Positions 18,136 through 47,845 of a DNA stretch of 58,714 bases are shown here, one piece after another. The position numbers and the translations under genes were made by a program. The stretch is from a virus (taxonomy: Duplodnaviria > Caudoviricetes): IMG/VR virus record IMGVR_UViG_3300005611_000026, positions 1 through 58,714 of that record; one strand, written 5' to 3'. Every line of letters starts with the position of its first letter. Position 1 is the stretch's first letter. The notes beneath the pieces were generated by a model that had not been told where the DNA came from, made no database searches, and saw only the letters and a list, made by a program, of their open reading frames with translations.

Positions 18136-18173
18136 AAACACATGAAATCGAGAAAGCCTACGGAGGGCTACCA

Positions 18174-18626
18174 ATGAAACTCAGCAAATCAGAACAGCGC
18201 ATCTTAGACAAAGCGGCACGCATCATGGAAAAGAGCGCCTATTACTACCCTCAGCAGTTCACTTCAGCCAAAGCTACTAAGCAGTATTTCTTTAATCGAT
18301 TGGCCGGTAAAGACCGCGAGGAATTTCATGTCTTATTTCTGGACAATCAGCACCAACTGATTGCTTGCGACATATTATTTGTCGGCACCATTGATTGCGC
18401 CTCAGTCTACCCGAGAGAGCTGGTAAAGCAGACGCTAGAGCATGGCGCATCTGCTATCGTACTAGCCCACAATCATCCGTCAGGCACGCTAGAGCCTAGC
18501 AGGGCGGACATTGAAATAACCAAGAAAATCAAAAACTGCATGAATGCAATCGAGGTGAGAGTTTTAGACCATCTGATTGTCGGACATGGAACTCCAGCAT
18601 CGTTCGCAGAACAGGGGCTAATATGA
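18174..18626 (+). CDS. radC: RadC-like JAB/MPN domain protein
   Basis: REEFHVLFLD, VYPRE, AHNHPSG, VLDHLIVG. Confidence 0.93.
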   Translation: MKLSKSEQRILDKAARIMEKSAYYYPQQFTSAKATKQYFFNRLAGKDREEFHVLFLDNQHQLIACDILFVGTIDCASVYPRELVKQTLEHGASAIVLAHNHPSGTLEPSRADIEITKKIKNCMNAIEVRVLDHLIVGHGTPASFAEQGLI

Positions 18627-18988
18627 TCAAGCGCATACTCTATTCAATCAATCTGTATCGACGCCAAATCAGGCGTTTACGGAATGACATTCGGGAACAG
18701 GATATTGAAATCCGAAACCTGAAAATTGAACGCGACCTTCTGCGAAGCATGATGCGTAAAGCCAAAAAGGAGCGGGACGGATGGGAGAAAATGACCCTCC
18801 GTTATCGCGCTCTAAACAAGGCGCTTTGCGAGGAAATGGAAATAGAGCCGACTATTGACTCCGAGATTGTCAAAGACTTTCAAACCATTTTCGATGATCC
18901 GCTAGGCTACGACCAGACCGGAAAGCCGGTGAAGCCAGATACTCGCGGAGAAATTGTCGACCTTAATAAATATCGAGGAAAAAACTGA
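18623..18988 (+). CDS. Hypothetical coiled-coil protein, homolog of 10584-10961
   Basis: Shared N- and C-terminal motifs. Confidence 0.7.
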   Translation: MIKRILYSINLYRRQIRRLRNDIREQDIEIRNLKIERDLLRSMMRKAKKERDGWEKMTLRYRALNKALCEEMEIEPTIDSEIVKDFQTIFDDPLGYDQTGKPVKPDTRGEIVDLNKYRGKN

Positions 18989-19764
18989 TGGCTATTTTTC
19001 AAGACGTTGCACTCCCTATGACTATCGAGGATTTCTTAGAGGGGTATGACAATGCTAAAAAGGCAATTGAAGAAATGCACGCCATCAATGACCGGCAGAA
19101 AAAAGCCTGTGACGCATTGGGGCGTCACCTCTGGAATGGCTACCCATTCAGAGACGATAAAAGCCGACAGCTGCGAGAGCTTAGACAGCGGTTTTGGCGG
19201 GGCGCTTTCGATATTACTGACTTCGCTCGCTACATGGATGATCAGGCCAGAAAGGAGTTCGACCGATCGCTAGAAAACCCGCCTGAATTTACCATGGATA
19301 ACATTCGCGCTACGTTTCTGGAGCTGGCACAAAAAGCCGACATGATGTTTAACCGAGGGGTGGTCAATATCTTTAAACACCTTTCGGATGGCTACAAGAC
19401 AAACTCCAATGAGCCCTTCAGACTTGGCCGGAAGTTCATCATGGGCTGGGGCTGCGACAACTGGAGAGGCCGCCCGAATATTCGCTACCAAAACGAGGGT
19501 CGCATTGATGATATCGACAGGGTTTGCTCAACACTCTTAAACAAGGAATGGCAGCCACGCCGATTGGCCAGCGCAATAAACGCCTCCTTTGACGAGTGTT
19601 ACCAGAATGGCGATCGATGCGTATTTGATAACGATCTATTTCATATCAAAGGGTTTAAAAATGGCTCGCTGCATTGGACTGTAAAAAGCGAAAAGCTACT
19701 GAACAAGATCAATGACCTGATCGCTGCATACTATGGCGACAACACACTGGCGAAATCAGCATGA
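18988..19764 (+). CDS. DUF4942-like protein
   Basis: PPEFTMDNIRATF, MFNRGVVNIF..LS..YKTN, FHIKGFKNGSLH. Confidence 0.8.
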   Translation: MAIFQDVALPMTIEDFLEGYDNAKKAIEEMHAINDRQKKACDALGRHLWNGYPFRDDKSRQLRELRQRFWRGAFDITDFARYMDDQARKEFDRSLENPPEFTMDNIRATFLELAQKADMMFNRGVVNIFKHLSDGYKTNSNEPFRLGRKFIMGWGCDNWRGRPNIRYQNEGRIDDIDRVCSTLLNKEWQPRRLASAINASFDECYQNGDRCVFDNDLFHIKGFKNGSLHWTVKSEKLLNKINDLIAAYYGDNTLAKSA

Positions 19765-19982
19765 ACTGTAAAACCTATGAAAATATCTACTGCTCGATCA
19801 CCAGAGAGAGCGATGGCACATGGACAGGCTACAACAACGTAACGGGGATGCCAGCATACATCGATGGCGATCCATACAAAGGTCGCCGCATCTGGAAAAC
19901 ATACGAGAAGGCTAGGGCGTGGATGACTGAAACCACGCAGCACTACAGGACAATAGCTTTAAGGTCTGGCTGGGTACGATAA
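19761..19982 (+). CDS. Hypothetical protein
   Basis: ATGA overlap. Confidence 0.6.
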   Translation: MNCKTYENIYCSITRESDGTWTGYNNVTGMPAYIDGDPYKGRRIWKTYEKARAWMTETTQHYRTIALRSGWVR

Positions 19983-19996
19983 ATCTAAAATAATTG

Positions 19997-20025
19997 TTGA
20001 CAATCCTCAAGATATTGGCTATAGT
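19997..20025 (+). promoter_or_regulatory. Sigma70-type promoter (TTGACA-17-TATAGT)
   Basis: Near consensus; TTGACAATCCTCAA family. Confidence 0.85.
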
Positions 20026-20055
20026 TATATCTCAATAGAGCTACGGAGGCTTCAA

Positions 20056-20226
20056 ATGAACATCGAAATTACTTACCTAGACGACCATCTCCAAGAGCAA
20101 TCCTGCCATCTGGACGGGGTTACCCGAATTGCACAGGATGAATACGGCAGCTGGGAGATTGACTGCGACGAAGGCGAAATGGTTGTTGAGGAAATTATCA
20201 GCATAAAAACAAGGAGCGCCGAATAA
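20056..20226 (+). CDS. Small acidic hypothetical protein (56 aa; below ORF-track cutoff)
   Basis: GGAGG RBS after promoter; MNIEITYLDD...RSAE*; stop overlaps next ATG. Confidence 0.75.
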   Translation: MNIEITYLDDHLQEQSCHLDGVTRIAQDEYGSWEIDCDEGEMVVEEIISIKTRSAE

Positions 20227-20441
20227 TGGCTGCGCTAACTAACGTCGAAAGTGTTGGATCTTTAGAAACCGGAATGGTGGTTAAAAAGATATTCACTGAC
20301 CAACGCTACTTCATCACCTCAATCAAAATCACCCGCGCTGGCGTCCCTTTCATCTACGGCTATGCCATGAAAGACGATGGCACTATCGAGACTGAGGAAC
20401 GATTCATCGACTACTACCGACGACTAGAGGTTGCACAATGA
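20226..20441 (+). CDS. Hypothetical protein
   Basis: RBS AAGGAG, TAATG coupling. Confidence 0.7.
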   Translation: MAALTNVESVGSLETGMVVKKIFTDQRYFITSIKITRAGVPFIYGYAMKDDGTIETEERFIDYYRRLEVAQ

Positions 20442-20839
20442 AAAAATATGAATTTGAACCCGCTGGCTGCGAAAGCCCCGAGGACTTAATTCGACTGCTT
20501 TTAGAGTATCGAGAGGTCTACAACAGCGACGAGCAGGTGATTTACACCTACGACCCAACATCTGGATTTACCTACAATCTAAACCCTAAAAAGACGTGTG
20601 TATTCGCAAAATTCAGAGGGGCTTGGATTAAGAAAGAGGTTGAGTGGTACCGGAAAATCCCCGAACACGGCGTTCTATGCTGGATTTATAGCAACAAAAG
20701 CAATATGAGAATAGGGAGGGTCATGCATTACAAGGAATCTGACATCCCTTTTGCTACTGACACAGGCGCTGTATGGGAGCACGCCGATCCACTAACCAAT
20801 GAAGAAATCAAACAATTCCTAGACCCCGAGGATAGCTAA
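20438..20839 (+). CDS. Hypothetical protein
   Basis: RBS GAGGT, ATGA overlap. Confidence 0.7.
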   Translation: MKKYEFEPAGCESPEDLIRLLLEYREVYNSDEQVIYTYDPTSGFTYNLNPKKTCVFAKFRGAWIKKEVEWYRKIPEHGVLCWIYSNKSNMRIGRVMHYKESDIPFATDTGAVWEHADPLTNEEIKQFLDPEDS

Positions 20840-20867
20840 AACATTAAATAATTGGTAAACTGGATGC

Positions 20868-21098
20868 ATGACCCCTGCTAAAACCGCTAAATCGATGGGA
20901 CTGAAATCCCTAACTCAAGTCTCAGAGATTACAGGGGTCTCTATGAATACGCTATCCAACTGGCATAAACACAAGCCCCTCTTATTCGACATTGTTTTAA
21001 GGGGGTGCTGTGACCGGCTGGAAATCTCTCCTACCCATCAACTTCTGGATGAAATCTGTGCGATCACAAGACAACGACAAGTTAAAGATAGTTTATAA
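20868..21098 (+). CDS. Small HTH-like protein
   Basis: GLKSLTQVSEITGVSMNTLSNW. Confidence 0.65.
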   Translation: MTPAKTAKSMGLKSLTQVSEITGVSMNTLSNWHKHKPLLFDIVLRGCCDRLEISPTHQLLDEICAITRQRQVKDSL

Positions 21099-21636
21099 AT
21101 CAATCGACGAGCTATCGGAGTATCCCGATAATCCCCGTAATCATGACGATGAAAAGATTGGGGAGCTGGTCGAGCGGATAAAGCGCACCGGCTGGGCGAC
21201 TCCAATTGAGATTGACGAGGCCGGTATGATCCTCAGTGGCCACGGAAGAATGCTGGCGGCTAAACAGCTGGATATGAAAAAGGTGCCCTGTGTGGTGCTT
21301 GAGGGGATGACAGAGGCGCAAAAGGCGGAGCATGTCATTGCATCCAACCGAGTAGCGGAGCATGTAGATTGGGATTACAGCAATCTGGCAGTAACTTTCG
21401 ACTTTCTCGAAAAATGCGATGTTGATCCGGTTCACACTGGATTCGATGCGAGTCATATCAGTGACATTTTGGATTTCACCAATCGCACAGCTGGGGTCAA
21501 CAAGGAGCCGACTCAATCACAATCCTTGGTGACAGAAGATCAAGTCCAGAAGGCAAATGTTAGCGTTAATACTCCTACCATTGAAAACAAGCAGTCAATC
21601 GTCTGCCCCCATTGCACTGAGGAGTTCTTTATATGA
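21049..21636 (+). CDS. ParB/Srx N-terminal domain protein with C-terminal CxxC
   Basis: YPDNPRNH, GWATPIEID, ILSGHGR..AA, SNRVAE, CPHC; start uncertain. Confidence 0.88.
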   Translation: MKSVRSQDNDKLKIVYKSIDELSEYPDNPRNHDDEKIGELVERIKRTGWATPIEIDEAGMILSGHGRMLAAKQLDMKKVPCVVLEGMTEAQKAEHVIASNRVAEHVDWDYSNLAVTFDFLEKCDVDPVHTGFDASHISDILDFTNRTAGVNKEPTQSQSLVTEDQVQKANVSVNTPTIENKQSIVCPHCTEEFFI

Positions 21637-22256
21637 TTACAGAGATTGGCAAGCACCGAGTCCAGCACGCAAACATTATGGGCGGGATTGACGCTTTAAT
21701 GGCTGGAGACATGGCGGATTTTGTCTACAGCGATCCGCCATGGGGGCAGGGGAACCTTCGATACTGGCAGACGATGAATAAAAAGATGACCGGCGCGGAG
21801 CGTCAGGAAATTGACTACTCGGAGTTCATCGAAAAGCTGTTTTCAATTATTGCCAGATACGCGAGAGATAGGGTGGTCATTGAATACGGAGTTCGCTGGA
21901 AGGATGACATACAAGCGATAGCGGCAAGGTATGGGTTTTCGGGACCCGTTCATCGAGGAATCTACGACTCAAAAAACCTCCCATTAGATTTCCATTTTCT
22001 AAGCAAATCCGGCCAATTCACACCTACAACCAATGTGATCGATAAGCTAAAGATCCAGAAGGGACTCAAAATAGTAGAGACCATATTCGACGATTGCTGT
22101 CCGATTGACTCAAAAATAGTTTTAGACCCAATGTGCGGCATGGGTTATACGGCTCAGGCGGCGGTTAACCGAGGTATGGCGTTTAGAGGGAATGAGTTGA
22201 ACTCCAAAAGATTAGGTAAAACCATTGCCCGACTCGAAAAAGATAAAAGCCGTTAG
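21633..22256 (+). CDS. Putative amino-(N6A/N4C) DNA methyltransferase-like protein
   Basis: Motif IV YSDPPW followed by motif I VLDPMCGMG (beta order). Confidence 0.8.
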   Translation: MITEIGKHRVQHANIMGGIDALMAGDMADFVYSDPPWGQGNLRYWQTMNKKMTGAERQEIDYSEFIEKLFSIIARYARDRVVIEYGVRWKDDIQAIAARYGFSGPVHRGIYDSKNLPLDFHFLSKSGQFTPTTNVIDKLKIQKGLKIVETIFDDCCPIDSKIVLDPMCGMGYTAQAAVNRGMAFRGNELNSKRLGKTIARLEKDKSR

Positions 22257-22617
22257 CGTTGACCATTCTGTAGTCCTCGATTTTATCGAAGGCGTGGATA
22301 CTGAGGACGCTGAGTTTAAAGATCACTCTGCTAAAAAATGGTGGTTCGCTGTTTATTGCGATGAAAAGGTAGTCTCTGTCGGTAGTATGTACGAGGCCAG
22401 CAAGTCCACTATTCGAATGTCCAGCCATTACACCCTCCCTGAATATCGCGGTATGGGCTGCTCTACGGCGATGATCAAGGCGTCAATCGATAAAGCTAAA
22501 ATCCTTGGTTACGAGAAAGCTGACGCCTATACAAGAATCCCTTTGTATAAAAAACTCGGATTTAAGCCGGTTAGAAAATACAAATGGGGCGGGGAATACC
22601 TAATCAGGAAAATATGA
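22225..22617 (+). CDS. GNAT-family acetyltransferase
   Basis: YTLPEYRGMGCS motif A, LYKKLGF; start uncertain. Confidence 0.85.
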   Translation: MPDSKKIKAVSVDHSVVLDFIEGVDTEDAEFKDHSAKKWWFAVYCDEKVVSVGSMYEASKSTIRMSSHYTLPEYRGMGCSTAMIKASIDKAKILGYEKADAYTRIPLYKKLGFKPVRKYKWGGEYLIRKI

Positions 22618-23789
22618 GCACAATCTATCTTAATAAATCCGTTTACGAAGCTGGCTTGGAGCGGATGCGCTGGCTTTTTGACGAGTTTGAAAATGTGTCT
22701 GTCTGTTTTTCAGGCGGAAAAGACTCGACCGTGACCCTAGAGCTGGCCTTGCAAGTCGCCAAAGAACGCGGCCGACTGCCTTTGCCGGTGGTATTCGTTG
22801 ACCAAGAAGCCGAATGGAACTCCGTTATTGAGTATGTGCGTCGGACAATGAGCCGTGAGGAGATAGAGCCACACTGGATTCAATGCCCTATCAGGCTATT
22901 CAACGCCACGAGCTCAACGGAGAGCTGGCTGCATTGCTGGGCTGAGGGTGAGGACTGGATGAGGGATAAGGAGCCCGACAGCATCCAAGTGAATGATTTT
23001 GGCACCGATCGCTTCCACGACATTTTTCCGGCGTACCTGCAGAAGTTCTGGCCAGACCAAAAAGCGATCATGTTGGCCGGCGTGCGATGTGAGGAATCTC
23101 CCAATCGACGAACGGGATTGACCCATAATACGACTTATAAGTGGGTGACATGGGGCAAGCATCCGATCAAGAAGCGAGAGCACTACACGTTTTATCCGCT
23201 CTATGATTGGACTTGGCGGGATATCTGGAAATCAATCCACGACAACAAGTGGGACTACTGCAAGGTCTATGACGAGTTTTACCGCTATGGAATCTCCCCG
23301 ATGCAAATGAGGGTCTCCAATCTTCACCACGAGACCGCTGTTCACCAGCTGTTCTACCTTCAAGAAATCGAGGGGGAAACATGGGATAAGCTCACTCAAA
23401 GGCTCTCAGGGATCAATCAGGCGCGGCATCTGACGAAATCCGATATGTTTCAGGTTAAGAAGCTACCATTCATGTTCTCAAGCTGGAAGGACTACAGAGA
23501 TTATCTAGTCAAACATCTTCTGGTACCGGAGCAAGCCAAGCTATTCAACAGCAAATTCGCAGCCATGGATATCAAGTGGGGCGGCATGAGTAACGCAGGC
23601 CTAGTCGCCATGTATCGCTCTCAGATCAATTGCGTGCTTTCCAACGACTTCGAGTTCACCAAAATGGACAATTTCGAGTCAAGGGCTCAAGTGGTCAACT
23701 ACCGAAAATGGAAGGCGGGCAAACTGGATCTGTCTATCGATCGATCATTATTTAACTATTTACCGGAGGGATGGGATGCTACTAGCTGA
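22614..23789 (+). CDS. PAPS reductase-family protein (IbrA/YbdN-like)
   Basis: PP-loop FSGGKDS, DQEAEW, GVRCEESPNR, YPLYDWTWRDIW, MRVS. Confidence 0.92.
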   Translation: MSTIYLNKSVYEAGLERMRWLFDEFENVSVCFSGGKDSTVTLELALQVAKERGRLPLPVVFVDQEAEWNSVIEYVRRTMSREEIEPHWIQCPIRLFNATSSTESWLHCWAEGEDWMRDKEPDSIQVNDFGTDRFHDIFPAYLQKFWPDQKAIMLAGVRCEESPNRRTGLTHNTTYKWVTWGKHPIKKREHYTFYPLYDWTWRDIWKSIHDNKWDYCKVYDEFYRYGISPMQMRVSNLHHETAVHQLFYLQEIEGETWDKLTQRLSGINQARHLTKSDMFQVKKLPFMFSSWKDYRDYLVKHLLVPEQAKLFNSKFAAMDIKWGGMSNAGLVAMYRSQINCVLSNDFEFTKMDNFESRAQVVNYRKWKAGKLDLSIDRSLFNYLPEGWDATS

Positions 23790-24486
23790 AATCCAGAAAA
23801 AGCTCGACTCGAGTTCGCCTGAGGACGCCATAGAGTTCATCAGCGATATTATGATGACTCTCAAGATCAGCTCCCCAGTAAAGGATCACCCGATCTGCTC
23901 GGTTAAATGGGCAAGAATCGATCAAGTCCAAGCGAATGATTACAACCCAAACTCAGTAGCAGGGAAGGAAATGCAGCTGCTGTACACCTCAATCAAGGCC
24001 GATGGCTACACCCAGCCAGTAGTCACGGTGTATGACCCCGAGATAGAGAAGTACGTCATCATTGATGGGTTTCATCGATACTTCACCTGCAAGACCAATC
24101 CCGATGTTCTAGAGTCAACCTTCGGATTCTTACCAATAGTGGTGCTAAATAAGACCATGAACGAGAGAATGGCTGCTACCGTTCGACACAATCGAGCCCG
24201 AGGCGCACACTCCATTGGGGGAATGAGTAACATGGTTTTCCAAATGCTCGACAATGGGCTGGAAGATCACGAGATCTGCAATGAGCTAGGTATGGACCCC
24301 GAGGAATTACTGCGCTTGAAACATATCACAGGATTTAGCAAACTATTTGAAAGCGCGGAGTATCAAAAGGCATGGGAGACCAAACGCCAGATACTTCATC
24401 GAAAGGAATACCAATCTACGAGCGACAGGGTCGCAAGCGGGGCAAATGTAGATGACGGAAAAGACCAAGAACGGGAGACAGGGTGA
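23776..24486 (+). CDS. ParB-like protein (IbrB/YbdM-like)
   Basis: ANDYNPNSVA..EM.LL..SI..DGYTQP, IDGFHR, ATVRHNRARG. Confidence 0.92.
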   Translation: MLLAEIQKKLDSSSPEDAIEFISDIMMTLKISSPVKDHPICSVKWARIDQVQANDYNPNSVAGKEMQLLYTSIKADGYTQPVVTVYDPEIEKYVIIDGFHRYFTCKTNPDVLESTFGFLPIVVLNKTMNERMAATVRHNRARGAHSIGGMSNMVFQMLDNGLEDHEICNELGMDPEELLRLKHITGFSKLFESAEYQKAWETKRQILHRKEYQSTSDRVASGANVDDGKDQERETG

Positions 24487-24868
24487 GGGCGGCGGAAGGC
24501 CACCACGCGAGTTTTCTCCAGCAGAAATAGATACTTACGAGAAATTAGCCGCTGTATTAACCAAAAAGCAATGCGCCGATTTCTTCCAAATGAGCGAAAC
24601 CACCCTAAGGGAAGTCGAGAAAAGACAACCCGAGGTGGCTGATGCCTATAAAAAAGGCAAATCCAATGCCGTAGCATCCGTGGCTCAATCACTGCTTTCC
24701 ATGGCTACCAGAAAGGGCAATGTCACAGCTGCCATCTTCTACCTAAAGACTCAGGCGGGCTGGAAGGAAGGCGCTGATACCACCTCAGACACCGAGACCC
24801 CATCATTCACAATCAATGTTTCTCGCAGAGAGCCAGTGGGCGACATGAGGATTACTCGTGGATCTTGA
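24452..24868 (+). CDS. terS: Terminase small subunit
   Basis: GRPP, HTH, GNVTAAIFYLKTQAGW; upstream of terL. Confidence 0.8.
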   Translation: MTEKTKNGRQGEGGGRPPREFSPAEIDTYEKLAAVLTKKQCADFFQMSETTLREVEKRQPEVADAYKKGKSNAVASVAQSLLSMATRKGNVTAAIFYLKTQAGWKEGADTTSDTETPSFTINVSRREPVGDMRITRGS

Positions 24869-26120
24869 TCTATCCGCTCCACAGGCGGCTTATCTGTATG
24901 ACCTAAATACCAAGTATCGAGCCTTCGTCGGTGGATTCGGATCAGGCAAGACTGCGGTCGGCTGTCTGGATCTGGCTCTATTCGCTTGCCAATATCCGAA
25001 AATAACCCAAGCATATTTCGGTCCCACTTATGGCGCCGTAAAAGATATCTTCTATCCAACACTTGAGGAGATGGTTTACCCGCTTGGCCTGACTACACCG
25101 GTGCGGATTGGCGATCAGGAAGTGGATCTGTTCTACGGCCGCCGGTATTACGGGACGATCATTTGCCGATCGATGGATAATCCCGACAAGATTATTGGAT
25201 TCAAGGTGGCAAGGGCTCTCGTTGATGAAATCGATGTGTTGGAGGCGAAGAAGGCAGAAAGGGCGTGGAACAAGATCATTGCCCGATTAAGGCTCAAGGT
25301 TGATGGCGTAATCAATGGAGTGGGGGTTACCACGACCCCTGAAGGATTTAAATTCGTACACAAGCGATTCAAGAAGAACCCCACTCAATCCTATTCCATG
25401 GTGCAAGCCAGCACCTACGAGAACGAGAAATATCTGCCGGATGATTACATAGCGACTCTCAGGGAGTCTTATCCGGCACAGCTGATCGATGCCTATATCG
25501 AGGGGGAGTTTGTCAATCTCACCTCAGGAACGGTCTACTACGCCTATGATCGGAGACTCTGCAGGTCAAAAGAGACCATCCAACCCAAGGAACCGCTCTA
25601 TATCGGCATGGATTTCAACGTTACCAAAATGGCCGCCACGATCTATGTTCACAGGGAGGAAGGGGGGGAGACGATATGGCACGCAGTGGACGAAATAGTA
25701 GATGGCTATGATACCGCCGCGGTTATCCAGATCATCGACGAGCGCTACAGACAGCCAGACAAGGAGCATAAAATCACCATCTATCCCGATAGCTCAGGGG
25801 GTAATAGCGCCACAAACGCCAGCACTTCCGATATTGGCTTGTTGTCTAAATATTCGATTCGGGTAAAATCAACGAATCCAGCAGTCAAAGACAGGGTCAA
25901 CGCTGCCAACACAGCCTTCGAGAAAAGGCGTGTCAGGATAAACGACGAGAAGTGTCCAACCACTGCCGATTGTTTAGAACAGCAGATTTATGGAAAGAAT
26001 GGTGAGCCCGACAAGAAATCTGGAAATGATCACCAGAACGATGCGACGACCTATCCTATCGCTTATGAAATGCCCATCATTAGGCCGCTATCTCGTCCAG
26101 ACTTTAAGTTCCAACACTAG
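24858..26120 (+). CDS. terL: Terminase large subunit
   Basis: Walker A GGFGSGKT, Walker B LVDEID, TTTPEG, nuclease GMDFN and DHQNDA. Confidence 0.95.
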   Translation: MDLDLSAPQAAYLYDLNTKYRAFVGGFGSGKTAVGCLDLALFACQYPKITQAYFGPTYGAVKDIFYPTLEEMVYPLGLTTPVRIGDQEVDLFYGRRYYGTIICRSMDNPDKIIGFKVARALVDEIDVLEAKKAERAWNKIIARLRLKVDGVINGVGVTTTPEGFKFVHKRFKKNPTQSYSMVQASTYENEKYLPDDYIATLRESYPAQLIDAYIEGEFVNLTSGTVYYAYDRRLCRSKETIQPKEPLYIGMDFNVTKMAATIYVHREEGGETIWHAVDEIVDGYDTAAVIQIIDERYRQPDKEHKITIYPDSSGGNSATNASTSDIGLLSKYSIRVKSTNPAVKDRVNAANTAFEKRRVRINDEKCPTTADCLEQQIYGKNGEPDKKSGNDHQNDATTYPIAYEMPIIRPLSRPDFKFQH

Positions 26121-26129
26121 GCGGACGAT

Positions 26130-28530: not shown

Positions 28531-28542
28531 CGGGGTTACACC

Positions 28543-29220: not shown

Positions 29221-29244
29221 TTTTCGACTTAAAAGGAGTCACCC

Positions 29245-30390: not shown

Positions 30391-30403
30391 TTGAATAGGC
30401 CAT

Positions 30404-30446: not shown

Positions 30447-30456
30447 GGGGGAAAAT

Positions 30457-40165: not shown

Positions 40166-40172
40166 GTGATTT

Positions 40173-40448: not shown

Positions 40449-40449
40449 T

Positions 40450-40947
40450 ATGAAACTGCTATTTATCTCGCTCTTGAGCGCGTTCCTTTTTTCATGCGCG
40501 GCTTTTGATGGCGACCCCAATACAACCGTTTGGGGAACTACCGTTGGCAACGAGCAGATCGATATTGATCTTGGCGATGGAAAACTGCTAGGCAGTCGAG
40601 AGTTGTATTTGGCTGGCGTGACAGGCTTGGAGCTGGCGGTGATAAATGGCTCGCAGGCTCCACAGGCGATCAATGCGGGGCTTTTATACGCTAAGGACAA
40701 GGTAGGCGATGCCGAGGAGCTTTTGAGCACTGACGAAGCCTACCAGAAAGTGCTTAATTCATTACTGGCTTGCGATCAGCCTATCTGTCAGACCACACTT
40801 GGCTCGGAAGCTAGAGTTGCTTTCGTAGAGGAAGCGGTGCCGCAGCTGAGCGACTTGACGAAGCGTGCTCAAGGCGTCACCGCAACCACCAATGACGTGA
40901 TCGACGCCCTTCTTGTAGCTACTGAGATCAATCGTAATGTCAATTAA
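40450..40947 (+). CDS. Putative lipoprotein
   Basis: MKLLFISLLSAFLFSC signal peptide with lipobox-like Cys; RBS GGAGGG. Confidence 0.7.
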   Translation: MKLLFISLLSAFLFSCAAFDGDPNTTVWGTTVGNEQIDIDLGDGKLLGSRELYLAGVTGLELAVINGSQAPQAINAGLLYAKDKVGDAEELLSTDEAYQKVLNSLLACDQPICQTTLGSEARVAFVEEAVPQLSDLTKRAQGVTATTNDVIDALLVATEINRNVN

Positions 40948-41542
40948 TCGATCGTTAGCCGCTAAGGCGCTATTGGTTGCACAGCTGGCCTATGACAAAT
41001 CCGACCCCGCCTTCCGAACAGAGCATGACGATTTCTATGTGGAAATCGACGATGAAGAACGCATTGTTTGGATTGGCGTTGCTGGCTCTAATGACCGTTA
41101 TGACTGGTTTGATAATTTTCTGGCTAGTCGGGGTTGGTTTGATGGCATTGTCAAAGCGCATAAGCGATGGTTCAAACGCGCTAAAGGATTTAAATTCCGA
41201 TTAGATAAGATTGTCGATAAAAACGCTGGCTATCGCGTAATGCTGTCTGGTCATTCCTATGGCGGGGCGGCCGCGTCGAACTATGCGTTTCTGAGAAGGG
41301 ATCGAGTGACCGAATGTTTCACGTGGAACAGTCCGAAGCCATGGGCTGAATTTAAAGATGGTGCGATTGAATTGCAGATGCGGGAAATGTGCCACCACTT
41401 TATTAATGATGCGGATAAGATTACCCGCACACCTTTCAGAAACCGATGTTTTGGGCGGGAATATCGAAAAGACATTAATCGATTCGGGCAAGACCACACC
41501 AACTGGGAGGCTTTGCACGATATAGTCGACTGGTATTTATGA
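40937..41542 (+). CDS. Lipase class 3 family protein
   Basis: GS..DWFDN, H.R, nucleophile GHSYGG, TWNSPK, D.ITRTP, terminal DH. Confidence 0.85.
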   Translation: MSINRSLAAKALLVAQLAYDKSDPAFRTEHDDFYVEIDDEERIVWIGVAGSNDRYDWFDNFLASRGWFDGIVKAHKRWFKRAKGFKFRLDKIVDKNAGYRVMLSGHSYGGAAASNYAFLRRDRVTECFTWNSPKPWAEFKDGAIELQMREMCHHFINDADKITRTPFRNRCFGREYRKDINRFGQDHTNWEALHDIVDWYL

Positions 41543-41655
41543 TTGAATACGTGGTAAATGGCGTACTGTTGTTGGGGATAGCATACGCGCTTTGTAAGAT
41601 TTTCAGTTACTTAGTGATAGCTATCCTGATATGGATATGGAGTAGAGATAAATGA
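41539..41655 (+). CDS. 38-aa hydrophobic membrane peptide (holin-like candidate)
   Basis: MIEYVVNGVLLLGIAYALCKIFSYLVIAILIWIWSRDK*; ATGA overlaps at both ends. Confidence 0.55.
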   Translation: MIEYVVNGVLLLGIAYALCKIFSYLVIAILIWIWSRDK

Positions 41656-42056
41656 ATGAGCAGTCACCATCAAATCAAGTTAATTGGCCTATTACATGGG
41701 TAATGACAGCCGTTTTAGGCGGCACGGCGACAGGCGTTGGTGTGTTTGGCGGCGATAGCCTGAAGCAAGCGGTTGTACCTGCAGCGTTTGCACAAGAGAT
41801 CAAAGAGCTAAAGGAGGGGCTGGCCGAAGAAAAACTCGAGTTTAAGACTCACCAGCAGATGACTAACTATCGATTAAATGGGCTCGAGAAAGCCATTCCC
41901 GATATAAAGGATGCCGTTTATACAGCCAAATCGGTCGCTAATGAAACTAAGACATTGCAGGGTAGAATGGAAACCCAGCTTATGCACATGAAGGAGATCA
42001 TGCAGGGGCAAAATCAAGCCCTCGCGGAAATCGTGGCAAACTCTCGCACACCATAA
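41652..42056 (+). CDS. Membrane-anchored coiled-coil protein
   Basis: N-terminal hydrophobic segment then heptad-like helix. Confidence 0.6.
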   Translation: MNEQSPSNQVNWPITWVMTAVLGGTATGVGVFGGDSLKQAVVPAAFAQEIKELKEGLAEEKLEFKTHQQMTNYRLNGLEKAIPDIKDAVYTAKSVANETKTLQGRMETQLMHMKEIMQGQNQALAEIVANSRTP

Positions 42057-42064
42057 GGTTTATT

Positions 42065-42544
42065 ATGAAATTATTGGTTATTTTATTATCCCTGATCCCT
42101 GCTTTTGTTAGCGGCCAATGTAGGGAGATTGCCAATGTATCTATTGGTATACCAACTGAAAGAACCGATGGCAGCCCTCTACCCTACGATGAAATTGCAG
42201 CTACAGGCATTGTGCGGGATATCGATGGCCGGTTATCGGAAACTAGTCTGCAATACGGGATAACCTCTTACAACGAGCAAAACCCGAGACCCAATTGCGA
42301 GGCGGGGGAAGTAATTTACTCTGTTTATGTAGTTGATGTTTTTGGGAATCTTTCAGGCGTTTCAATCCCATGGGTAGCGACATTCGAAGGTGGGAAAGTT
42401 CAAGTAGAGCCCGCCCCCATGGAAGTCAATGTTGGCGGGGATATCTCAGTAGTACCTGACCTTCCTTTGCCTTTTTGCCCATCTTCACCACCTTATGATT
42501 TCAGCTGTCAATTTCAGTCTGGAGAAACCGCAGAGGTTAATTAA
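42065..42544 (+). CDS. Secreted FN3-like protein
   Basis: Signal peptide MKLLVILLSLIPAFVSG; PTERTDGSPL..EIA, VVD.FG..S. Confidence 0.55.
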   Translation: MKLLVILLSLIPAFVSGQCREIANVSIGIPTERTDGSPLPYDEIAATGIVRDIDGRLSETSLQYGITSYNEQNPRPNCEAGEVIYSVYVVDVFGNLSGVSIPWVATFEGGKVQVEPAPMEVNVGGDISVVPDLPLPFCPSSPPYDFSCQFQSGETAEVN

Positions 42545-43515
42545 TGGCCAAGTTCGCCATTTATTTTAAGTTCGACTTCATCAATCGACCCAATCACTTG
42601 GGCGGCGGTGATTGGCCGAATACCGCAGACATGCAAACCTATTTTGGGCAAGCATTAACTCTGGTAGCGGCCTATGGATTTGATGCGGTAATCACAAGGC
42701 CGGAAGAAAAAAATCAATGGTCAAATGTGACTTTCAGGCGCTGGTTTATGGATCAGTGTCAGACGCTAGGGCTTGAGGTTTGGTATAGGGCGAAGGCACC
42801 CTCAGATGCCAGCAGGGACGGAGTAGCAGTACAGGCATATATCGACAATATCTATACTCATCCGGCCTGCACCCGAGTAATGTATGGCGATGAAACGAAG
42901 GGATTAGATGCCGCACCTGAAAAAGATATTCTCAGTATTCGCACAGAGTTAGCTGTTGTTAAAGCTGCATTCCCATCTATGCCAGTTTCATCGAATTTGA
43001 TTGGTGAAACAATGGCCAGAACCGAGATTACTGTTAATCCATTTGACGGTAATTTCGACTATGAGGTTGATTTTGATATCAATGGTGTTTTGTGGGGATT
43101 AATGGGCGCTGATTTTAAAGTGGCTCGTCATTACTCAGTTCGTCGAACTTATAACCACAATACCAACCCCTATTACGACAAGTATATTATCAAGCTAGAG
43201 GATTGGCTGGACGAGTTAAATTGGAGGGATTCGAACGGAGTTCCAGTAATACAAGGATTTGGCAGCGGCACAGCTGTAGATAATGCCTCGTTTTGGCGAT
43301 TTCCTACCTATACTGAGCTTTATGACATGCTGAATTTAGCAAGGCAGCGATTTAATTGGGTAGCGATTTTTTCAGTTGGCCAGATTGATAATGATACACG
43401 CACTGCTAATCCTGCGTTTCAAATTATGAACGAGGATTTCAGTGAGCCATTGGCGCATGATGGCTCTCGTCCTGCGGATGCTGTGCGCGACATTATTTCA
43501 GCATTTGGCACTTAA
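42544..43515 (+). CDS. Hypothetical, possible glycoside hydrolase TIM-barrel
   Basis: GFDAV, CQTLGLEV, HPA..VMYGDE, VPVIQGF, WRFPT..EL. Confidence 0.4.
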   Translation: MAKFAIYFKFDFINRPNHLGGGDWPNTADMQTYFGQALTLVAAYGFDAVITRPEEKNQWSNVTFRRWFMDQCQTLGLEVWYRAKAPSDASRDGVAVQAYIDNIYTHPACTRVMYGDETKGLDAAPEKDILSIRTELAVVKAAFPSMPVSSNLIGETMARTEITVNPFDGNFDYEVDFDINGVLWGLMGADFKVARHYSVRRTYNHNTNPYYDKYIIKLEDWLDELNWRDSNGVPVIQGFGSGTAVDNASFWRFPTYTELYDMLNLARQRFNWVAIFSVGQIDNDTRTANPAFQIMNEDFSEPLAHDGSRPADAVRDIISAFGT

Positions 43516-43517
43516 AA

Positions 43518-43817
43518 ATGTCTCTGCCTACCGTTTCAAAAGCGCAAATTGATCCCTCCGGTCGAACCCTTACAATTATCCTGAGTGAGCCAGTGCTCAT
43601 CTATGACTCTGAGGGCTTTCTTGTGAAGGGGGTTAATTTGACATATTATGGCGTAACATCATCCAATCAGATTCTTAGATATAGAATGTCAAGGCGAGTT
43701 TCTTCTGGCGAATCACTCACATTGAGTTACACCAAAAAGGGCGCGGGAATGGTAAATGGCATCAATAACCCACTTCAGTCCATTGATCAGCTAGTGATAG
43801 AAAACCAAGTCGTGTGA
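43518..43817 (+). CDS. SwmB-repeat/Ig-like domain protein
   Basis: PTVSKA...GRTLTI..SEPV...V.SGESLTLSYT...N.LQS....IEN. Confidence 0.55.
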   Translation: MSLPTVSKAQIDPSGRTLTIILSEPVLIYDSEGFLVKGVNLTYYGVTSSNQILRYRMSRRVSSGESLTLSYTKKGAGMVNGINNPLQSIDQLVIENQVV

Positions 43818-43828
43818 GGCAATAAATC

Positions 43829-44743
43829 ATGGTTGCAATCGTTAATACAGATTCGTTTCAAGAAAATCCGTCTGTAAGTGTTAGTCCCACAATATCTAGC
43901 TTTACCCCTGCTGCGGGTGCGAAGCAGATATTAGTTATTATTGGCATAGACGGGTCACCTGATACCCAAGTAACTTCTTGCACTATCGGCGGCGTTTCAA
44001 TGGACGTTGTCGGAACTTCGGTAAGCACTGAAGGCCGATCATTCTCTGCGTTTATCATAGAAGCAGAGGGTAATAGCGGTGATATAGTCTCTGGCGTTTC
44101 AACTTCAGTTGGGTATTTTATTGCGGCGGCGGCGATAAATGGCTATTTAACCGGCTCGAATATATGGGGAAACAATAGTAATCCGGCTTTGAACGCTATT
44201 GACTGTCCTGATAACTCTACTTCAAACATATTAATCTCAGCCCTCATTATCAATCTTGCTGACTCAGCTGTAACGACTGATGCAGCTCTAACAGTGCAAG
44301 AACAAACCACCGATGCAGTTCAAGCTGGGAATTTCTATGGCGAATTATCGTCTCGGAATAGCACCGGCTCGCTAGACAACATGAATTATTGGACCCATTC
44401 AAATCAGCAGTGGACTGTAGGCGGATTTCTTTTTTCGGACATGCCTAGCGCGCAAGAATTGGCCACTGAATCCGATTACACGATAGCTCAAAATTCAGCC
44501 ACATTTAGTCTGGCGAATGGTAGTTATACAATGTTTGCATTCGATAATAGAAATTCTGGCCGCGACCCTGACGCAAATTACATGGTGGGAACGGCTACTA
44601 TTGCATCCGGTGCGATTACAGCGTTTACCGCTACTCGCTATGGATCTTCATCTGCGCTATCTAAAATGGCTGTCACGCTAACGGATAGGACGTCAGATAC
44701 CAACGGCCAAGCGGCGACTATCCCTAACGTCTCATTTACTTAA
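43829..44743 (+). CDS. Ser/Thr-rich beta-sheet protein, probably virion or surface associated
   Basis: Composition; VTSCTIGGVSM. Confidence 0.5.
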   Translation: MVAIVNTDSFQENPSVSVSPTISSFTPAAGAKQILVIIGIDGSPDTQVTSCTIGGVSMDVVGTSVSTEGRSFSAFIIEAEGNSGDIVSGVSTSVGYFIAAAAINGYLTGSNIWGNNSNPALNAIDCPDNSTSNILISALIINLADSAVTTDAALTVQEQTTDAVQAGNFYGELSSRNSTGSLDNMNYWTHSNQQWTVGGFLFSDMPSAQELATESDYTIAQNSATFSLANGSYTMFAFDNRNSGRDPDANYMVGTATIASGAITAFTATRYGSSSALSKMAVTLTDRTSDTNGQAATIPNVSFT

Positions 44744-44756
44744 TAGGGGTGTTTGA

Positions 44757-45062
44757 ATGAGCACACTTCAGGCTTGGAACGGCAATGTTTACTTGTGGAT
44801 TCAGTCCACATTTACCGTAGCAGCCTCCGGCGCAAATTATACGAGCGTGTCAGCTGCATTAGCGAGCGCAGCAACCAGCATTGGTGATACATTGCAGATT
44901 TCAGCTGGAACATACGGTGATTATGTATACAGCTCAGCGGTGACAACAACGATCATTGATGACGGATCAGGCGGCAAGGCTATAGCTTATAGTGCTGGCG
45001 GCGGTGGAGGGTTTGCAACCTCGGGCATGACTAGGAATATGATCCGGAGTTTAATTGCCTGA
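44757..45062 (+). CDS. Hypothetical protein
   Basis: TVAASGANYTSVSAAL...GDTLQISAGTY resembles a beta-helix N-cap. Confidence 0.55.
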   Translation: MSTLQAWNGNVYLWIQSTFTVAASGANYTSVSAALASAATSIGDTLQISAGTYGDYVYSSAVTTTIIDDGSGGKAIAYSAGGGGGFATSGMTRNMIRSLIA

Positions 45063-45478
45063 TGAAGCTCCGTCGACTAACTAAGACTTTAATTCGACAC
45101 GAGGGAATGAGAGGGAAGCCCTACGATTGCCCTGCTGGGTTTTTAACAATAGGTGTAGGCCGAAACCTTGAAGCCAATGGTATTAGCGAGGAGGAGGCGC
45201 TAGTGCTGCTTAGAAACGACATTGTTTCTTGCTATCAGCAGTGCAAACGGGAGTTTTCTTGGTTCGAGGATTTAAATGATGTTCGACAGGAGGCGATTAT
45301 TAACCTCGTCTTTAATATCGGGCTGGATGGATTCAAGAAGTTCAAGAAAACGATCGGTTTTATCAAGCAAGAAAAATGGAGCGAAGCGGCCACCGAATTA
45401 TTGGATAGCCGCTACGCTGATCAAGTAGGAAAACGAGCTCAAGAAGTCTCTAGGATGCTTGAGACTGGAGTTCTCTGA
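45062..45478 (+). CDS. Phage lysozyme (GH24, T4-like)
   Basis: HEG.R.KPYDCPAG.LTIGVGRNL, RQEAIINLVFNIG, LDSRYADQVG.RA. Confidence 0.92.
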   Translation: MKLRRLTKTLIRHEGMRGKPYDCPAGFLTIGVGRNLEANGISEEEALVLLRNDIVSCYQQCKREFSWFEDLNDVRQEAIINLVFNIGLDGFKKFKKTIGFIKQEKWSEAATELLDSRYADQVGKRAQEVSRMLETGVL

Positions 45479-46574
45479 TTACTTCAGGCTCTAAATTAAA
45501 TTCTTTACAATCCAATAGCATACAAGCCCAATCATCCGGAGTAAGCTCGTCGACTATTTCATCAATACCCGCCTCGTCAACAGAATCAAAAGCCGCTTTT
45601 AAATCCGCCAAGTAAGTGTGAATGATGTTTTTTCCGTTCTCTTTTAGCTTATTGACCAGATCGCCCATTTTCCCCTTCTGACCTTTTGGAAACGAGTGCA
45701 TGAGAGAGATCCATTCTCCGGCGCCGTGGCCGCTACCATCCCCTAAGTCAAACGACTTTGAGAATAGATACATGCCGACCGAGTCATTTTTCTCAATCAA
45801 TTGATCGAAGAATTGTTTTTGCTCGACGCTGTAGCTTTGCGGCGTTGGATTATTGATTAGGGGCTCAAAGCCAGTGTTTTCATTCGAGAGCTGTACAGCC
45901 AGATCCATTCTTGAGTTTCCTTTAGGCCATGTTTTAAAGGCGCGGCGAATCACTGTCTTTTTGGCCATTTCCACATAGTCGCTATCCCATGGGGAGCCAA
46001 AGCCAGCTTTTACCGCTTCCGACCGGCTTTTGATATCTTCTATTTCTTCCTTGGTCATTACATCAGTCAAGAAATCCCCGCCCTTGGTTCGGGCTACACA
46101 GAACACCCCGACCATTTCCCCGCGATCTTTGCCGAATGCATCGTATTTATGCGTAGGGGAGAAGCCCGCCCCATTATCGATAAACTCATCTTTCTCATAA
46201 ACAGCATTCGCTTGCACCCATTGAATGACCCCGCCGCTAGTAGCCAGCTTGATCATTCCAACATAAGAGGGCTCAAGGTAAATCTTAGTTTTCCAGAGTG
46301 TCGCGCCGTTTTGCTTAACCTGCACCTTTCTAGGGATTAAATAAGCCAATCTCTCAGCGGGGCTCAGGCTTAATCCAATAGCCGCCACGTTGACCAGAGC
46401 GACCTTGAGCGATGCAGGGCTTTCTTCGGCTGCCTGCTTGAGATAGGAACTGCCGGCCAGTATTTGCTTTGCAAACTCCGCTTCGGCAGCGAATTGCATA
46501 CCGATTGGAGCCAGTTCCACAAATTGCGGGCGGGCGATTTCAAAGGGGTTTTTAACAATTTCCGTTTCTGGCAT
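45450..46574 (-). CDS. recT: RecT-family recombinase
   Basis: GLSLSPA..LAYLIPR, SY.GMI.LA, SPW..DY.EMAKKTVIRRAFK.WP. Confidence 0.92.
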   Translation of the reverse strand: MPETEIVKNPFEIARPQFVELAPIGMQFAAEAEFAKQILAGSSYLKQAAEESPASLKVALVNVAAIGLSLSPAERLAYLIPRKVQVKQNGATLWKTKIYLEPSYVGMIKLATSGGVIQWVQANAVYEKDEFIDNGAGFSPTHKYDAFGKDRGEMVGVFCVARTKGGDFLTDVMTKEEIEDIKSRSEAVKAGFGSPWDSDYVEMAKKTVIRRAFKTWPKGNSRMDLAVQLSNENTGFEPLINNPTPQSYSVEQKQFFDQLIEKNDSVGMYLFSKSFDLGDGSGHGAGEWISLMHSFPKGQKGKMGDLVNKLKENGKNIIHTYLADLKAAFDSVDEAGIDEIVDELTPDDWACMLLDCKEFNLEPEVIRELQSQAS

Positions 46575-46746
46575 GATTACCTCCTAGTTTTCTTTCGTGG
46601 ATTTCCTGCCTGTCGATAGTAATGTCTCTAGGCGCTTCAATAGCGAGTCGTGCGCTGCCGTTATCAATACCAATCACTGTAACTTTGATCTTGGCATCAT
46701 CAATGACGACTGTTTCTCCGACTCTTCGGTTTAGGACTAATGGCAT
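46552..46746 (-). CDS. csrA: CsrA/RsmA-family RNA-binding regulator
   Basis: LVLNRRVGETVVID..IKVTV...RLAIEAPRDITIDRQEI; RBS GGAGGT. Confidence 0.92.
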   Translation of the reverse strand: MPLVLNRRVGETVVIDDAKIKVTVIGIDNGSARLAIEAPRDITIDRQEIHERKLGGNHARNGNC

Positions 46747-46786
46747 GGTTAACCTCCATGGGTTGATTAAGTGTCCGTAAAACCTT

Positions 46787-46815
46787 ATTATATGAATATC
46801 GATGATTATTGTCAA
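46787..46815 (-). promoter_or_regulatory. Perfect sigma70 promoter (TTGACA-17-TATAAT) for csrA-recT
   Basis: Reverse complement of TGTCAA 46810-46815 and ATTATA 46787-46792. Confidence 0.92.
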
Positions 46816-46833
46816 TTACAAAGGTGTTATTAG

Positions 46834-47061
46834 ATGAAGAAAAAGCTCAAGGTTTACGATTGGACTAACGTGATCAATGGAACCCAAATGACTGATGGTG
46901 CTATCTGTCACGAGCTGGCCACTCAGTTTGGCCTTAAATACTCACCTAGCGGGATCTGGCGAATGCGAATGGGTCAGACCAAGCAACCATCCCATGAGAT
47001 CGGACAGGGGCTTCTGGAGCTTTACAGACAGGGAGCCGGTCGGGTGGCCATGCCATTATGA
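46834..47061 (+). CDS. Cro-like HTH protein
   Basis: IWRMRMGQTKQPSHEIGQGLLELY; divergent from csrA. Confidence 0.7.
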   Translation: MKKKLKVYDWTNVINGTQMTDGAICHELATQFGLKYSPSGIWRMRMGQTKQPSHEIGQGLLELYRQGAGRVAMPL

Positions 47062-47366
47062 ATAGACTAGATCATTTGCTGGTTATTTTTGGTGAGGAGT
47101 GTAACGAGGTAGCGCAGGAAACCGCAAAGGCTTTGAGGTTTGGGATCTATGAACAAAGAGATCTGCCAACAACAAATATAGAGCGAATGGGCGTTGAGCT
47201 TAGTCAGCTTTTGGCAATGGCTGAAATGCTGAAGGATGAAGGCTACGAAATACCTATTTATGCTGATGTGATGGATGCGAAAAAAGAGAAGGTAGAAAAA
47301 TACCTAGCCTACTCAAAACATCTTGGCCGGTTAACTGAAGATCCTGAAAAAGAAAAACCCGCTTGA
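47058..47366 (+). CDS. MazG-like nucleotide pyrophosphohydrolase
   Basis: EECNEV....KALRFG; second acidic motif partly degenerate (ELSQL). Confidence 0.65.
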   Translation: MNRLDHLLVIFGEECNEVAQETAKALRFGIYEQRDLPTTNIERMGVELSQLLAMAEMLKDEGYEIPIYADVMDAKKEKVEKYLAYSKHLGRLTEDPEKEKPA

Positions 47367-47399
47367 CCTTTTGAGTCAGAGCGGGCTATTCTTAATTTG

Positions 47400-47756
47400 T
47401 TGGCGGGATTTGAGCGTCCCTTCAATGATTGACTAAGAAATATGGGAAGAAATCAATCACCGTTATCAACGGCGGTTATTTTACCCTCCCTATTTTTCCA
47501 AATCAATCCTTATACGCTCTCAGGCTTAGAAGCGGCAAGGTTTCCTGATTAAAATTAACTCAATCCGAGAGCTTTAGGCTCACCATAGAACAATTTATTC
47601 TTAGGCTACCTTCGAGCGGGGATAAAGCAGCGACCAAGCAGGGGCGGGTTTGATCGACCGCATGGATGAAATAGATGCTGCATATCGATAAGAATATCTG
47701 AATAAGGTGTAACAGGGCTTCCCTGCTTAACGCTCTAACGGAATCTATGGCTTTTT
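47400..47756 (+). ncRNA. Candidate long structured non-coding RNA or origin region
   Basis: No ORF of 60 aa or more; upstream TTGACC-18-TATTCT; nested inverted repeats; T-run at end. Confidence 0.4.
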
Positions 47757-47778
47757 ACAATGTGCCTTAAAATAATTG

Positions 47779-47806
47779 TTGACAATCCTCAATAGTTGGT
47801 TACAAT
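47779..47806 (+). promoter_or_regulatory. Sigma70-type promoter (TTGACA-16-TACAAT)
   Basis: TTGACAATCCTCAA family. Confidence 0.8.
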
Positions 47807-47845
47807 GAACTTATCCAATCAAGAAAGCCTACGGAGGGCTTGCAA

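Follow-up and report, generated by a model that had tools for sequence, protein, structure and literature searches.

We have analyzed the record IMGVR_UViG_3300005611_000026, which derives from an uncultured marine phage (Caudoviricetes), with regard to a phage-borne csrA gene and a set of short RNA hairpins that may serve as translational operators on putative early mRNAs of the same phage. The window, as the term is used here, is the whole record of 58,714 nt. Its plus strand carries three promoter-leader cassettes (P1, P2 and P3), in each of which a near-consensus promoter is followed after 18–22 nt by a hairpin with the loop ACGGA, and the hairpin covers a GGAGG Shine-Dalgarno sequence 6–8 nt before the ATG of the first gene. 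Its minus strand carries csrA and, downstream from it, recT, which together form a two-gene unit (45450–46746) with no recognisable exonuclease partner for recT. The positions are collected in Table 1.

Table 1. Promoters, leader hairpins and genes at the cassettes and at csrA
Feature	Position	Strand	Remarks
P1 promoter, TTGACA-17-TATAGT, block TTGACAATCCTCAA	18107–18135	+	11/12 consensus
Leader hairpin 1, AGCCT-ACGGA-GGGCT	18155–18169	+	5-bp stem, ACGGA loop, -5.2 kcal/mol
First gene after P1: RadC-like JAB domain protein, 150 aa	18174–18626	+	PF04002, 6.7e-44
P2 promoter, TTGACA-17-TATAGT, block TTGACAATCCTCAA	19997–20025	+	11/12 consensus
Leader hairpin 2, GAGCT-ACGGA-GGCTT (GAGCU/GGCUU stem)	20038–20052	+	ACGGA loop, -3.2 kcal/mol
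First gene after P2: acidic 56-aa protein (15 D/E, 3 K/R)	20056–20226	+	without family match
P3 promoter, TTGACA-16-TACAAT, block TTGACAATCCTCAA	47779–47806	+	11/12 consensus
Leader hairpin 3, AAGCCT-ACGGA-GGGCTT	47825–47841	+	6-bp stem, ACGGA loop, -6.1 kcal/mol
First gene after P3, 63 aa	47846–48037	+	without family match
P5 promoter, fourth family member, TTGACA-17-CACAAT, AAAATAATTCTTGACAAT	49951–49979	+	drives gene at ATG 50008
csrA, 64 aa	46552–46746	-	Pfam CsrA profile and six-frame search
csrA promoter, TTGACA-17-TATAAT	46787–46815	-	12/12 consensus match
csrA leader	46747–46780	-	ACGGA 46778–46774 near predicted 5' end; CAUGGA 46760–46755 over Shine-Dalgarno
recT, 374 aa	45450–46574	-	family match; downstream of csrA

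RESULTS

Promoter-leader cassettes

The sequence-only reading that this analysis followed up had described three early promoters, each with a first gene whose Shine-Dalgarno lies inside a hairpin with an ACGGA loop. The three hairpin sequences were found exactly where that reading had placed them, and in the minimum-energy folds of all three leaders (-3.9 to -7.5 kcal/mol) the GGA is indeed predicted to lie in a 5-nt loop. In each of the hairpins the loop and the first two bases of the stem together supply the GGAGG, as in hairpin 1, where it spans 18162–18166, the GGA falling within the loop and the final GG within the stem. As to the promoters, three near-consensus sites are present, but they belong to a single cassette that occurs three times, and P5, the fourth family member, is not followed by the hairpin. 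P5 is an internal control without the hairpin, and the hairpin is separable from the promoter because P5, which belongs to the same family, lacks it.

The cassette layout, present in four copies of which three have the hairpin, consists of an AT-rich block TTGACAATCCTCAA, a -10 box, a leader of 24–33 nt, the Shine-Dalgarno and the ATG; the block itself occurs in three exact copies and a related fourth copy. In a three-way alignment of P1 to P3 the conserved blocks were AAT..TTGACAATCCTCAA in the -35 region, parts of the -10 box, CTACGGAGG and AATGAA, and the stretch from the -10 box to the hairpin had diverged almost completely. An extra A after 47795 in one metagenomic relative lengthens the P3 spacer to 17. 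When the whole window was scanned for sigma-70 promoters, at least 11 of the 12 consensus positions were matched only at P1, P2 and P3 (11/12 each) and at the csrA promoter, which is the sole 12/12 match. It is from the sigma-70 consensus only that the cassette promoters are taken to be early, and the word is used here in that putative sense. No T tract follows the hairpins, and none of the three was among the terminator-like sites on the plus strand.

The genes behind the cassettes overlap one another by 1–4 nt in chains (at 18623, 18988 and 19761; at 20226 and 20438; and at 48034, 48688, 49239 and 49592), such that the RadC-like gene, for example, is chained to the next three genes. Control at the first cistron could therefore spread down each operon. 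The 56-aa protein encoded behind P2 recalls, in its size and charge, the DNA-mimic anti-restriction proteins, a likeness that is speculative.

Conservation of the hairpin stem

It had also been proposed that the stems differ in sequence and yet keep their pairing. This is so for site 2, which differs at 5 stem positions and in which the comparison gave pairing in 10 of 10 cells, but sites 1 and 3 have the same stem. Ten of the 15 nt of the site-2 hairpin are identical and all 5 changed positions are paired; in 2 of the 5 stem pairs both partners have changed, and the ACGGA loop is the same in all three hairpins. Sliding the partner strand by an offset destroyed the stem pairing. Taken together, the stem changes with pairing kept may be regarded as weak evidence of a selected RNA structure. 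An operator at the DNA level was also considered for the inverted repeat and is disfavoured, since the U-G and G-U pairs match only as sense RNA.

The sequence ACGGAG was found before 6 of 30 GGAG-type sites here, compared with 9 of 371 in other viral loci; the C of this sequence cannot pair with the anti-Shine-Dalgarno. Two more hairpins with 5-bp stems and ANGGA loops were seen within coding sequence: GGAGA-AUGGA-UCUCU in the recT mRNA (45705–45719, minus strand) and UGAAU-ACGGA-GUUCG in a methyltransferase-like gene at 21633–22256 (21881–21895, plus strand).

The csrA gene and its leader

That the phage encodes a CsrA, as the sequence-only reading had it, was borne out by profile and alignment. 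Its product matched PF02599 with 60.2 bits (cut-off 27; E 1.9e-16), a six-frame search gave 59.3 bits, and 51 residues could be aligned to E. coli CsrA (PDB 1y00) with the RRVGET block kept. In a second block the phage sequence APrdItIdRqEI stands opposite APkeVsVhReEI of E. coli (1y00), and the Arg aligned with R44 is also kept. By these criteria, csrA is to be judged a real and intact-looking gene. R44A is the mutation that has been used to disable a CsrA RNA-binding surface (PMC7652899; this and the other papers designated by PMC numbers are cited for the portions consulted). The phage protein is likely, from its 51-residue alignment to solved dimers, to form an interleaved homodimer with two RNA-binding surfaces. 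It is isolated in sequence space: among 50,697 phage records, 12 had CsrA homologues, at 38–50% identity, and a large protein index searched with it returned only the query itself.

Two GGA motifs had been reported in the csrA leader, at minus-strand positions 46764–46751 and 46778–46774, and both are present there. They lie 19 nt apart, start to start, and thus within the range of 10–63 nt over which a CsrA dimer bridges two sites (PMC7652899). The start of recT overlaps the 3' end of csrA by 23 nt, and the recT Shine-Dalgarno, AGGAGG, is located inside csrA. As for a CsrB-like sponge RNA, Rfam gave 0 matches at the gathering score and no marked GGA cluster was seen in the window; the best intergenic cluster consisted of 5 GGA in 120 nt (minus strand, 47455–47574; fold z -1.75).

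Relatives of the cassette region

Relatives about 90% identical to the phage were found in two marine metagenome runs from two studies, here X1 and X2. In each run there is a contig in which 47843 is joined to 48032, the joint showing 6 nt of microhomology, and the 63-aa gene is exactly removed; the cassette is there fused to the ATG of the next gene (48034), which constitutes one case of gene gain or loss at a cassette. The promoter-leader part differed at 6 of 168 positions in X1 and 2 of 134 in X2, counted over the whole part and not for the hairpin letters singly, and the next gene differed at 40 of 390 and 41 of 330 positions, respectively. Conservation was just as high in the intergenic segment 47348–47714, where 8 of 352 and 7 of 367 positions differed. 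One contig from X1 spans recT together with the 3' part of csrA (45325–46657, 102 differences in 1333), and the X1 relative is csrA-positive because this contig includes that part of the gene.

Over the intergenic region as a whole, 47348–47845, divergence in the metagenomic relatives was about 2%, compared with about 8–12% in the flanking genes. This region, which contains two terminator-like hairpins and a small minus-strand GGA cluster and has no Rfam match, could represent an origin or a regulatory region, or else a module that was exchanged recently. Next to it, the gene for a MazG-like NTP pyrophosphohydrolase (47058–47366, phrog_4856) is replaced in the X1 relative by 278 other letters (joint 47062 to 47348), which is a module exchange beside the cassette.

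The sole match to the cassette in phage records was a 21-nt identity to Pseudoalteromonas phage vB_Psh_XG4 (PP712099.1, 158 kb). In XG4, AATTGTTGACAAT was matched 9 times when up to 1 mismatch was allowed, vs 2 for the reversed control, and the genome contains a family of 12 or more early promoter-leader cassettes, which share TTAAAATAA(A/T)TGTTGACA with the promoters of the window. We found no CsrA match in the XG4 genome. Among 12 XG4 leaders that were folded, not one places a GGA in a hairpin loop; in 10 the fold has an energy of -1.3 kcal/mol or weaker, and in the remaining two (-3.5 and -6.5 kcal/mol) it lies elsewhere in the leader. These observations on one AT-rich phage hint that the shared block may be a host-type promoter that is strong and has an AT-rich element upstream, and that the hairpin would not be a generic part of it. 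The block shared with XG4 is also a weak clue that the host may be an Alteromonadales-like marine gammaproteobacterium.

Wider searches returned little. Neither csrA nor the cassette was present in the fetched DNA of the 80 TerL-related loci kept out of 185 (protein identity at most 65%); no close relatives of 45400–49400 were found in 50,697 phage records, and RecT had no relatives in IMG/VR or in genome contigs. A 17-mer of the cassette gave 19 matches in IMG/VR, all of them chance matches in unrelated sequence; the cassette pattern gave 5 matches in genome contigs, in unrelated metagenome-assembled genomes and as many as chance predicts; and 3 matches in IMG/VR to the hairpin pattern lack a promoter and are unlike the window.

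The record and its other genes

The record is linear and 58.7 kb long, with a CheckV completeness of 83%. Siphovirus-like modules are present and no tRNAs were found in the record; a protein atlas search gave viral RecT clusters only, with no indication of a host. Self-comparison revealed a direct repeat of 2637 bp with 99.77% identity (13976–16612 and 51715–54351), and the record contains two head modules, one with a Mu-like protease/head gene at 1188–3191 and the other with TerL, portal, major head protein and tape measure at 24.8–35.7 kb. The record may thus be a chimeric or composite assembly, in which a 37.7-kb unit (13976–51714) is inserted in another phage at the repeat. All of the cassettes and csrA lie inside this single unit, and the segment 40781–47938 was independently confirmed, with 1 mismatch in 7158, by a Joint Genome Institute (JGI) metagenome contig of the same phage that was found by the RecT search.

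An acetyltransferase gene (phrog_1249, 3.5e-6) adjoins a PAPS reductase gene (phrog_2302, 4e-77) at 22225–23789, flanked by two ParB-like genes. At 13680–16410, with a copy at 52084–54149, there are at least 10 consecutive small genes, each with a conserved junction (TAAATCTCAATAA)TGTAC(TAAC) 12–22 nt before its start, after which ACGGAG or CUGGAA often serves as the Shine-Dalgarno. These junctions are a second family of repeated intergenic cassettes, and they resemble the AT-rich part upstream of P2 and P5.

DISCUSSION

Likeness to CsrA targets

In high-affinity CsrA ligands the GGA lies in the loop of a short hairpin, most of the hairpins obtained by SELEX (systematic ligand evolution by exponential enrichment) having at most 4 contiguous pairs, and RsmE contacts an ANGGAN hexaloop (PMC7652899; PMC4347634). 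Full repression of glgC requires two CsrA sites; a natural target with a single site is also on record, as is repression via translational coupling (iraD), and in the psl hairpin the Shine-Dalgarno pairs with an anti-Shine-Dalgarno sequence and the loop holds a site for a CsrA-family protein (PMC7652899). The csrA gene is itself autoregulated through translational inhibition (PMC7652899; PMC4347634).

The phage leaders resemble the targets of CsrA and RsmA-RsmE repression (glgC, hcnA, psl) in that a CsrA is encoded in the same genome and the Shine-Dalgarno GGA is located in the loop of a short hairpin; they share with psl, moreover, the placing of part of the Shine-Dalgarno in the stem (PMC7652899). 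The two GGA motifs of the phage csrA leader, within bridging range of each other, recall the autoregulation of E. coli csrA. In contrast to known CsrA and RsmE sites, a phage carries both the regulator and its candidate targets, there is one site only per target leader, and no CsrB-like sponge was found. The ACGGA core is said to be that of the hcnA RNA in the RsmE structure.

Interpretation of the leader hairpins

We consider it plausible, though unproven, that CsrA binds the three leaders and thereby represses the phage's own early operons. The hairpin would then act as translational operator for the leading cistron in each of three operons of overlapping genes, and its likeliest ligand would be a CsrA-family dimer, namely the phage's own CsrA and possibly host CsrA as well. 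Phage CsrA would be made from the strongest promoter in the genome, the 12/12 match; once bound, it would keep the 30S subunit off the Shine-Dalgarno, and the lost translation of the first cistron would spread downstream by coupling. The two GGA motifs of the csrA leader would provide for negative autoregulation. Transcription starts, binding, repression and timing are all predicted here from the DNA. There is some evidence that points to repression by CsrA, namely the invariant ACGGA loop combined with both-side changes in the stem, the retention of the cassette in relatives of about 90% identity, and the lack of a comparable leader hairpin in XG4, which is csrA-negative. A more far-reaching form of the same proposal, which we think rather unlikely, would make phage CsrA a RegA-like temporal switch that binds the ACGGA hairpin of a mobile cassette before any first gene, shuts off three early operons by coupling and limits itself via the two GGA motifs in its leader.

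Several observations weigh against repression by CsrA at these leaders. GGA belongs to any strong Shine-Dalgarno, much as the sequence-only reading had itself cautioned, and the hairpins were found at near-background frequency. With genes called by one crude gene caller, and under a strict rule that asked for a stem of 5 bp or more, an energy no higher than -3 kcal/mol and a loop containing the Shine-Dalgarno GGA, such hairpins were present at 4 of 109 genes here vs 43 of 2315 in 104 other viral loci; under a loose rule the corresponding counts were 19 of 109 and 296 of 2315. On both strands of the window, 8 ANGGA loops were closed by a stem of 5 bp or more, or 6 with paralogues counted once, vs 3.35 +/- 1.87 in shuffles, of which 5 in 200 reached 8. 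The leader folds had z-scores of -0.57 to -0.84, and 39–50 of 200 dinucleotide shuffles folded as well. The hairpins are thus neither unusually stable nor unusually frequent. In addition, self-comparison showed that the P1 to P3 regions are paralogous copies (84–97 nt, 76–79% identity), so that the three sites are one element copied and not independent observations, with an effective n of 1–2; there are only two distinct versions of the stem, for which the shuffle control has no power (141/500), and the excess of ACGGAG comes down to about 3 independent cases after duplicates and paralogues are merged. The leader of P5 has AAGGAGG with only a 3-bp helix and no ACGGA hairpin.

The match to CsrA sites is likewise incomplete. 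Compared with the consensus RUACARGGAUGU and the ANGGAN hexaloop, the leaders have ANGGA in the form ACGGA, but the loop is of 5 nt, there is no ACA, and GG stands in place of the 3' GU; only one GGA occurs in each of these leaders, which are 24–33 nt long. For the csrA leader, the proposed hairpin AACC-CATGGA-GGTT (minus strand, 46764–46751) did not stand up: it has an energy of -1.5 kcal/mol and is absent from the predicted minimum-energy fold, in which CAUGG is paired with CCAUG (z +0.79). A second GGA would occur by chance about 4 times in 10 in a leader of about 35 nt, as estimated from the GGA density of the window. The high identity in the relatives spans the whole intergenic region of 480 nt and may reflect recent exchange and not selection. 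Finally, six other csrA-positive phage loci (five from IMG/VR and Vibrio phage 1.232.O) had no comparable leader hairpins or shared design.

Much of this is what would be expected if the hairpin acted in cis without CsrA and, through partial pairing of the Shine-Dalgarno, determined how fast very strongly transcribed early mRNAs are translated or how long they last, and if phage CsrA acted instead on host mRNAs or Csr small RNAs in takeover or in the suppression of defence. We hold this possibility nearly as seriously as repression by CsrA, which is barely ahead of it. The ordinary frequency and stability of the hairpins, the single GGA per leader and the csrA-positive phages without such leaders all agree with a CsrA-independent hairpin, as do the published proposal of host manipulation for phage CsrA/RsmA (PMC8450108; PMC11879866) and the existence of T4-type PeSL cassettes, for which the consulted part of PMC2839356 draws no link to CsrA. 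What a CsrA-independent hairpin leaves unexplained is the exact ACGGA loop in all copies, the C of which weakens anti-Shine-Dalgarno pairing, and the preservation of the stem through changes on both sides; also, a GGA loop would presumably be hard to keep free of a CsrA that is made from a 12/12 promoter in the same cell.

Two further accounts were weighed against repression by CsrA. The hairpin may have no selected function and have been copied along with promoter and Shine-Dalgarno, the pairing at site 2 being due to chance. The paralogy of the cassettes, the ordinary fold z-scores, the lack of power of a covariation test with two distinct stem versions (141/500) and the fact that P5 apparently works without the hairpin would all fit, yet the hairpin keeps 10 of 15 nt and pairs at all 5 changed positions next to a stretch, from the -10 box to the hairpin, that has diverged almost completely, and the cassette is retained in relatives of about 90% identity; we regard this account as improbable. 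Still less probable in our judgement is that the hairpin is the operator for some other factor, either an antitermination protein like lambda N acting at a boxB-like site or a repressor of the T4 RegA or gp43 type. BoxB has a 5-bp stem and a five-base GNRA-like loop and is located just after early promoters. The stems of 5–6 bp, the pentaloop and the position 5–11 nt from the predicted 5' end recall it, and the second gene after P1 (18623–18988) encodes a protein with an arginine-rich N-terminus. However, the ACGGA loop is not GNRA-like, no boxA-like element was seen in the three leaders, no N-, Q- or RegA-like family was detected among the 37 window proteins scanned, and a hairpin over the Shine-Dalgarno points to control of translation and not of elongation. 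With no boxA, no GNRA loop and no N-like protein, the reading of these leaders as boxB or nut sites was rejected.

Comparison with other phage systems

Small CsrA homologues are found on other phages and plasmids as well, such as Pseudomonas phages of the RsmM type, Bcep22-like phages and coliphage PTXU04 (gp28), to which the present gene is similar in kind, although the identity is only 38–50% and no cis-targets on the phage have been proposed for them in the literature searched. In 2020, 30 of 2517 phage genomes (about 1.2%) had a CsrA homologue (PMC7366521). The Bcep22-like Burkholderia phage JC1 carries CsrA, an acetyltransferase and PAPS reductase as morons (PMC9144972), and the same trio is present in the phage analyzed here. 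Knock-down of a csrA homologue in a coliphage led to small plaques, in a report that describes the role as not tested before (PMC11879866). The published proposal for phage CsrA/RsmA is host manipulation, including repression of CRISPR-Cas (PMC8450108), and the presence of CsrA in phage and in host is correlated (PMC8450108; PMC11879866). In the literature searched, outside which fell subscription journals and supplements, we found no paper describing leaders of a phage itself as CsrA targets.

The arrangement of the cassettes is reminiscent of the PeSL cassettes of T4-type phages, in which a repeated early promoter, a stem-loop, a Shine-Dalgarno and an ATG mediate gene shuffling, and for which no CsrA link is made in the portion of the source consulted (PMC2839356). 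The two have in common an AT-rich stretch, a sigma-70 promoter, a stem-loop, a Shine-Dalgarno and an ATG before small uncharacterised genes at points of gain or loss (PMC2839356), and a gene is exactly absent behind the cassette in the X1 and X2 relatives. In contrast, the PeSL stem-loops are described as terminators or attenuators around the promoter (PMC2839356), whereas those reported here are located in the transcribed leader over the Shine-Dalgarno and have no T tract; also, the copies number only four, and the phage has siphovirus-like modules. In logic there is a further parallel. T4 RegA, T4 gp43 and the MS2 and Qbeta coat proteins are phage proteins that shut off earlier genes at the RNA initiation region, and the targets of gp43 and of the MS2 protein are short hairpins at the Shine-Dalgarno or start codon. 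These proteins are unrelated to CsrA and recognise another motif, such that the parallel is one of logic only.

Significance

CsrA homologues are present on about 1% of phages and on many plasmids, and their role in the phage life cycle has been described as untested (PMC11879866); the sole hypothesis that we found in print for phage CsrA is host manipulation or the suppression of defence (PMC8450108). Repression by CsrA of a phage's own early operons is without precedent in the literature searched, while phage CsrA homologues and CsrA sites in Shine-Dalgarno hairpins are already known. The phage genome described here supplies concrete candidate targets, namely three short leaders and the leader of csrA. 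If the proposal is untrue, host-directed roles of phage CsrA would again be favoured. If it is true, these leaders would be the first cis-regulon for a phage-borne CsrA, with promoter and CsrA operator joined as a portable module in a compact cassette, and a global bacterial regulator would have been taken over as a timing device of the phage.

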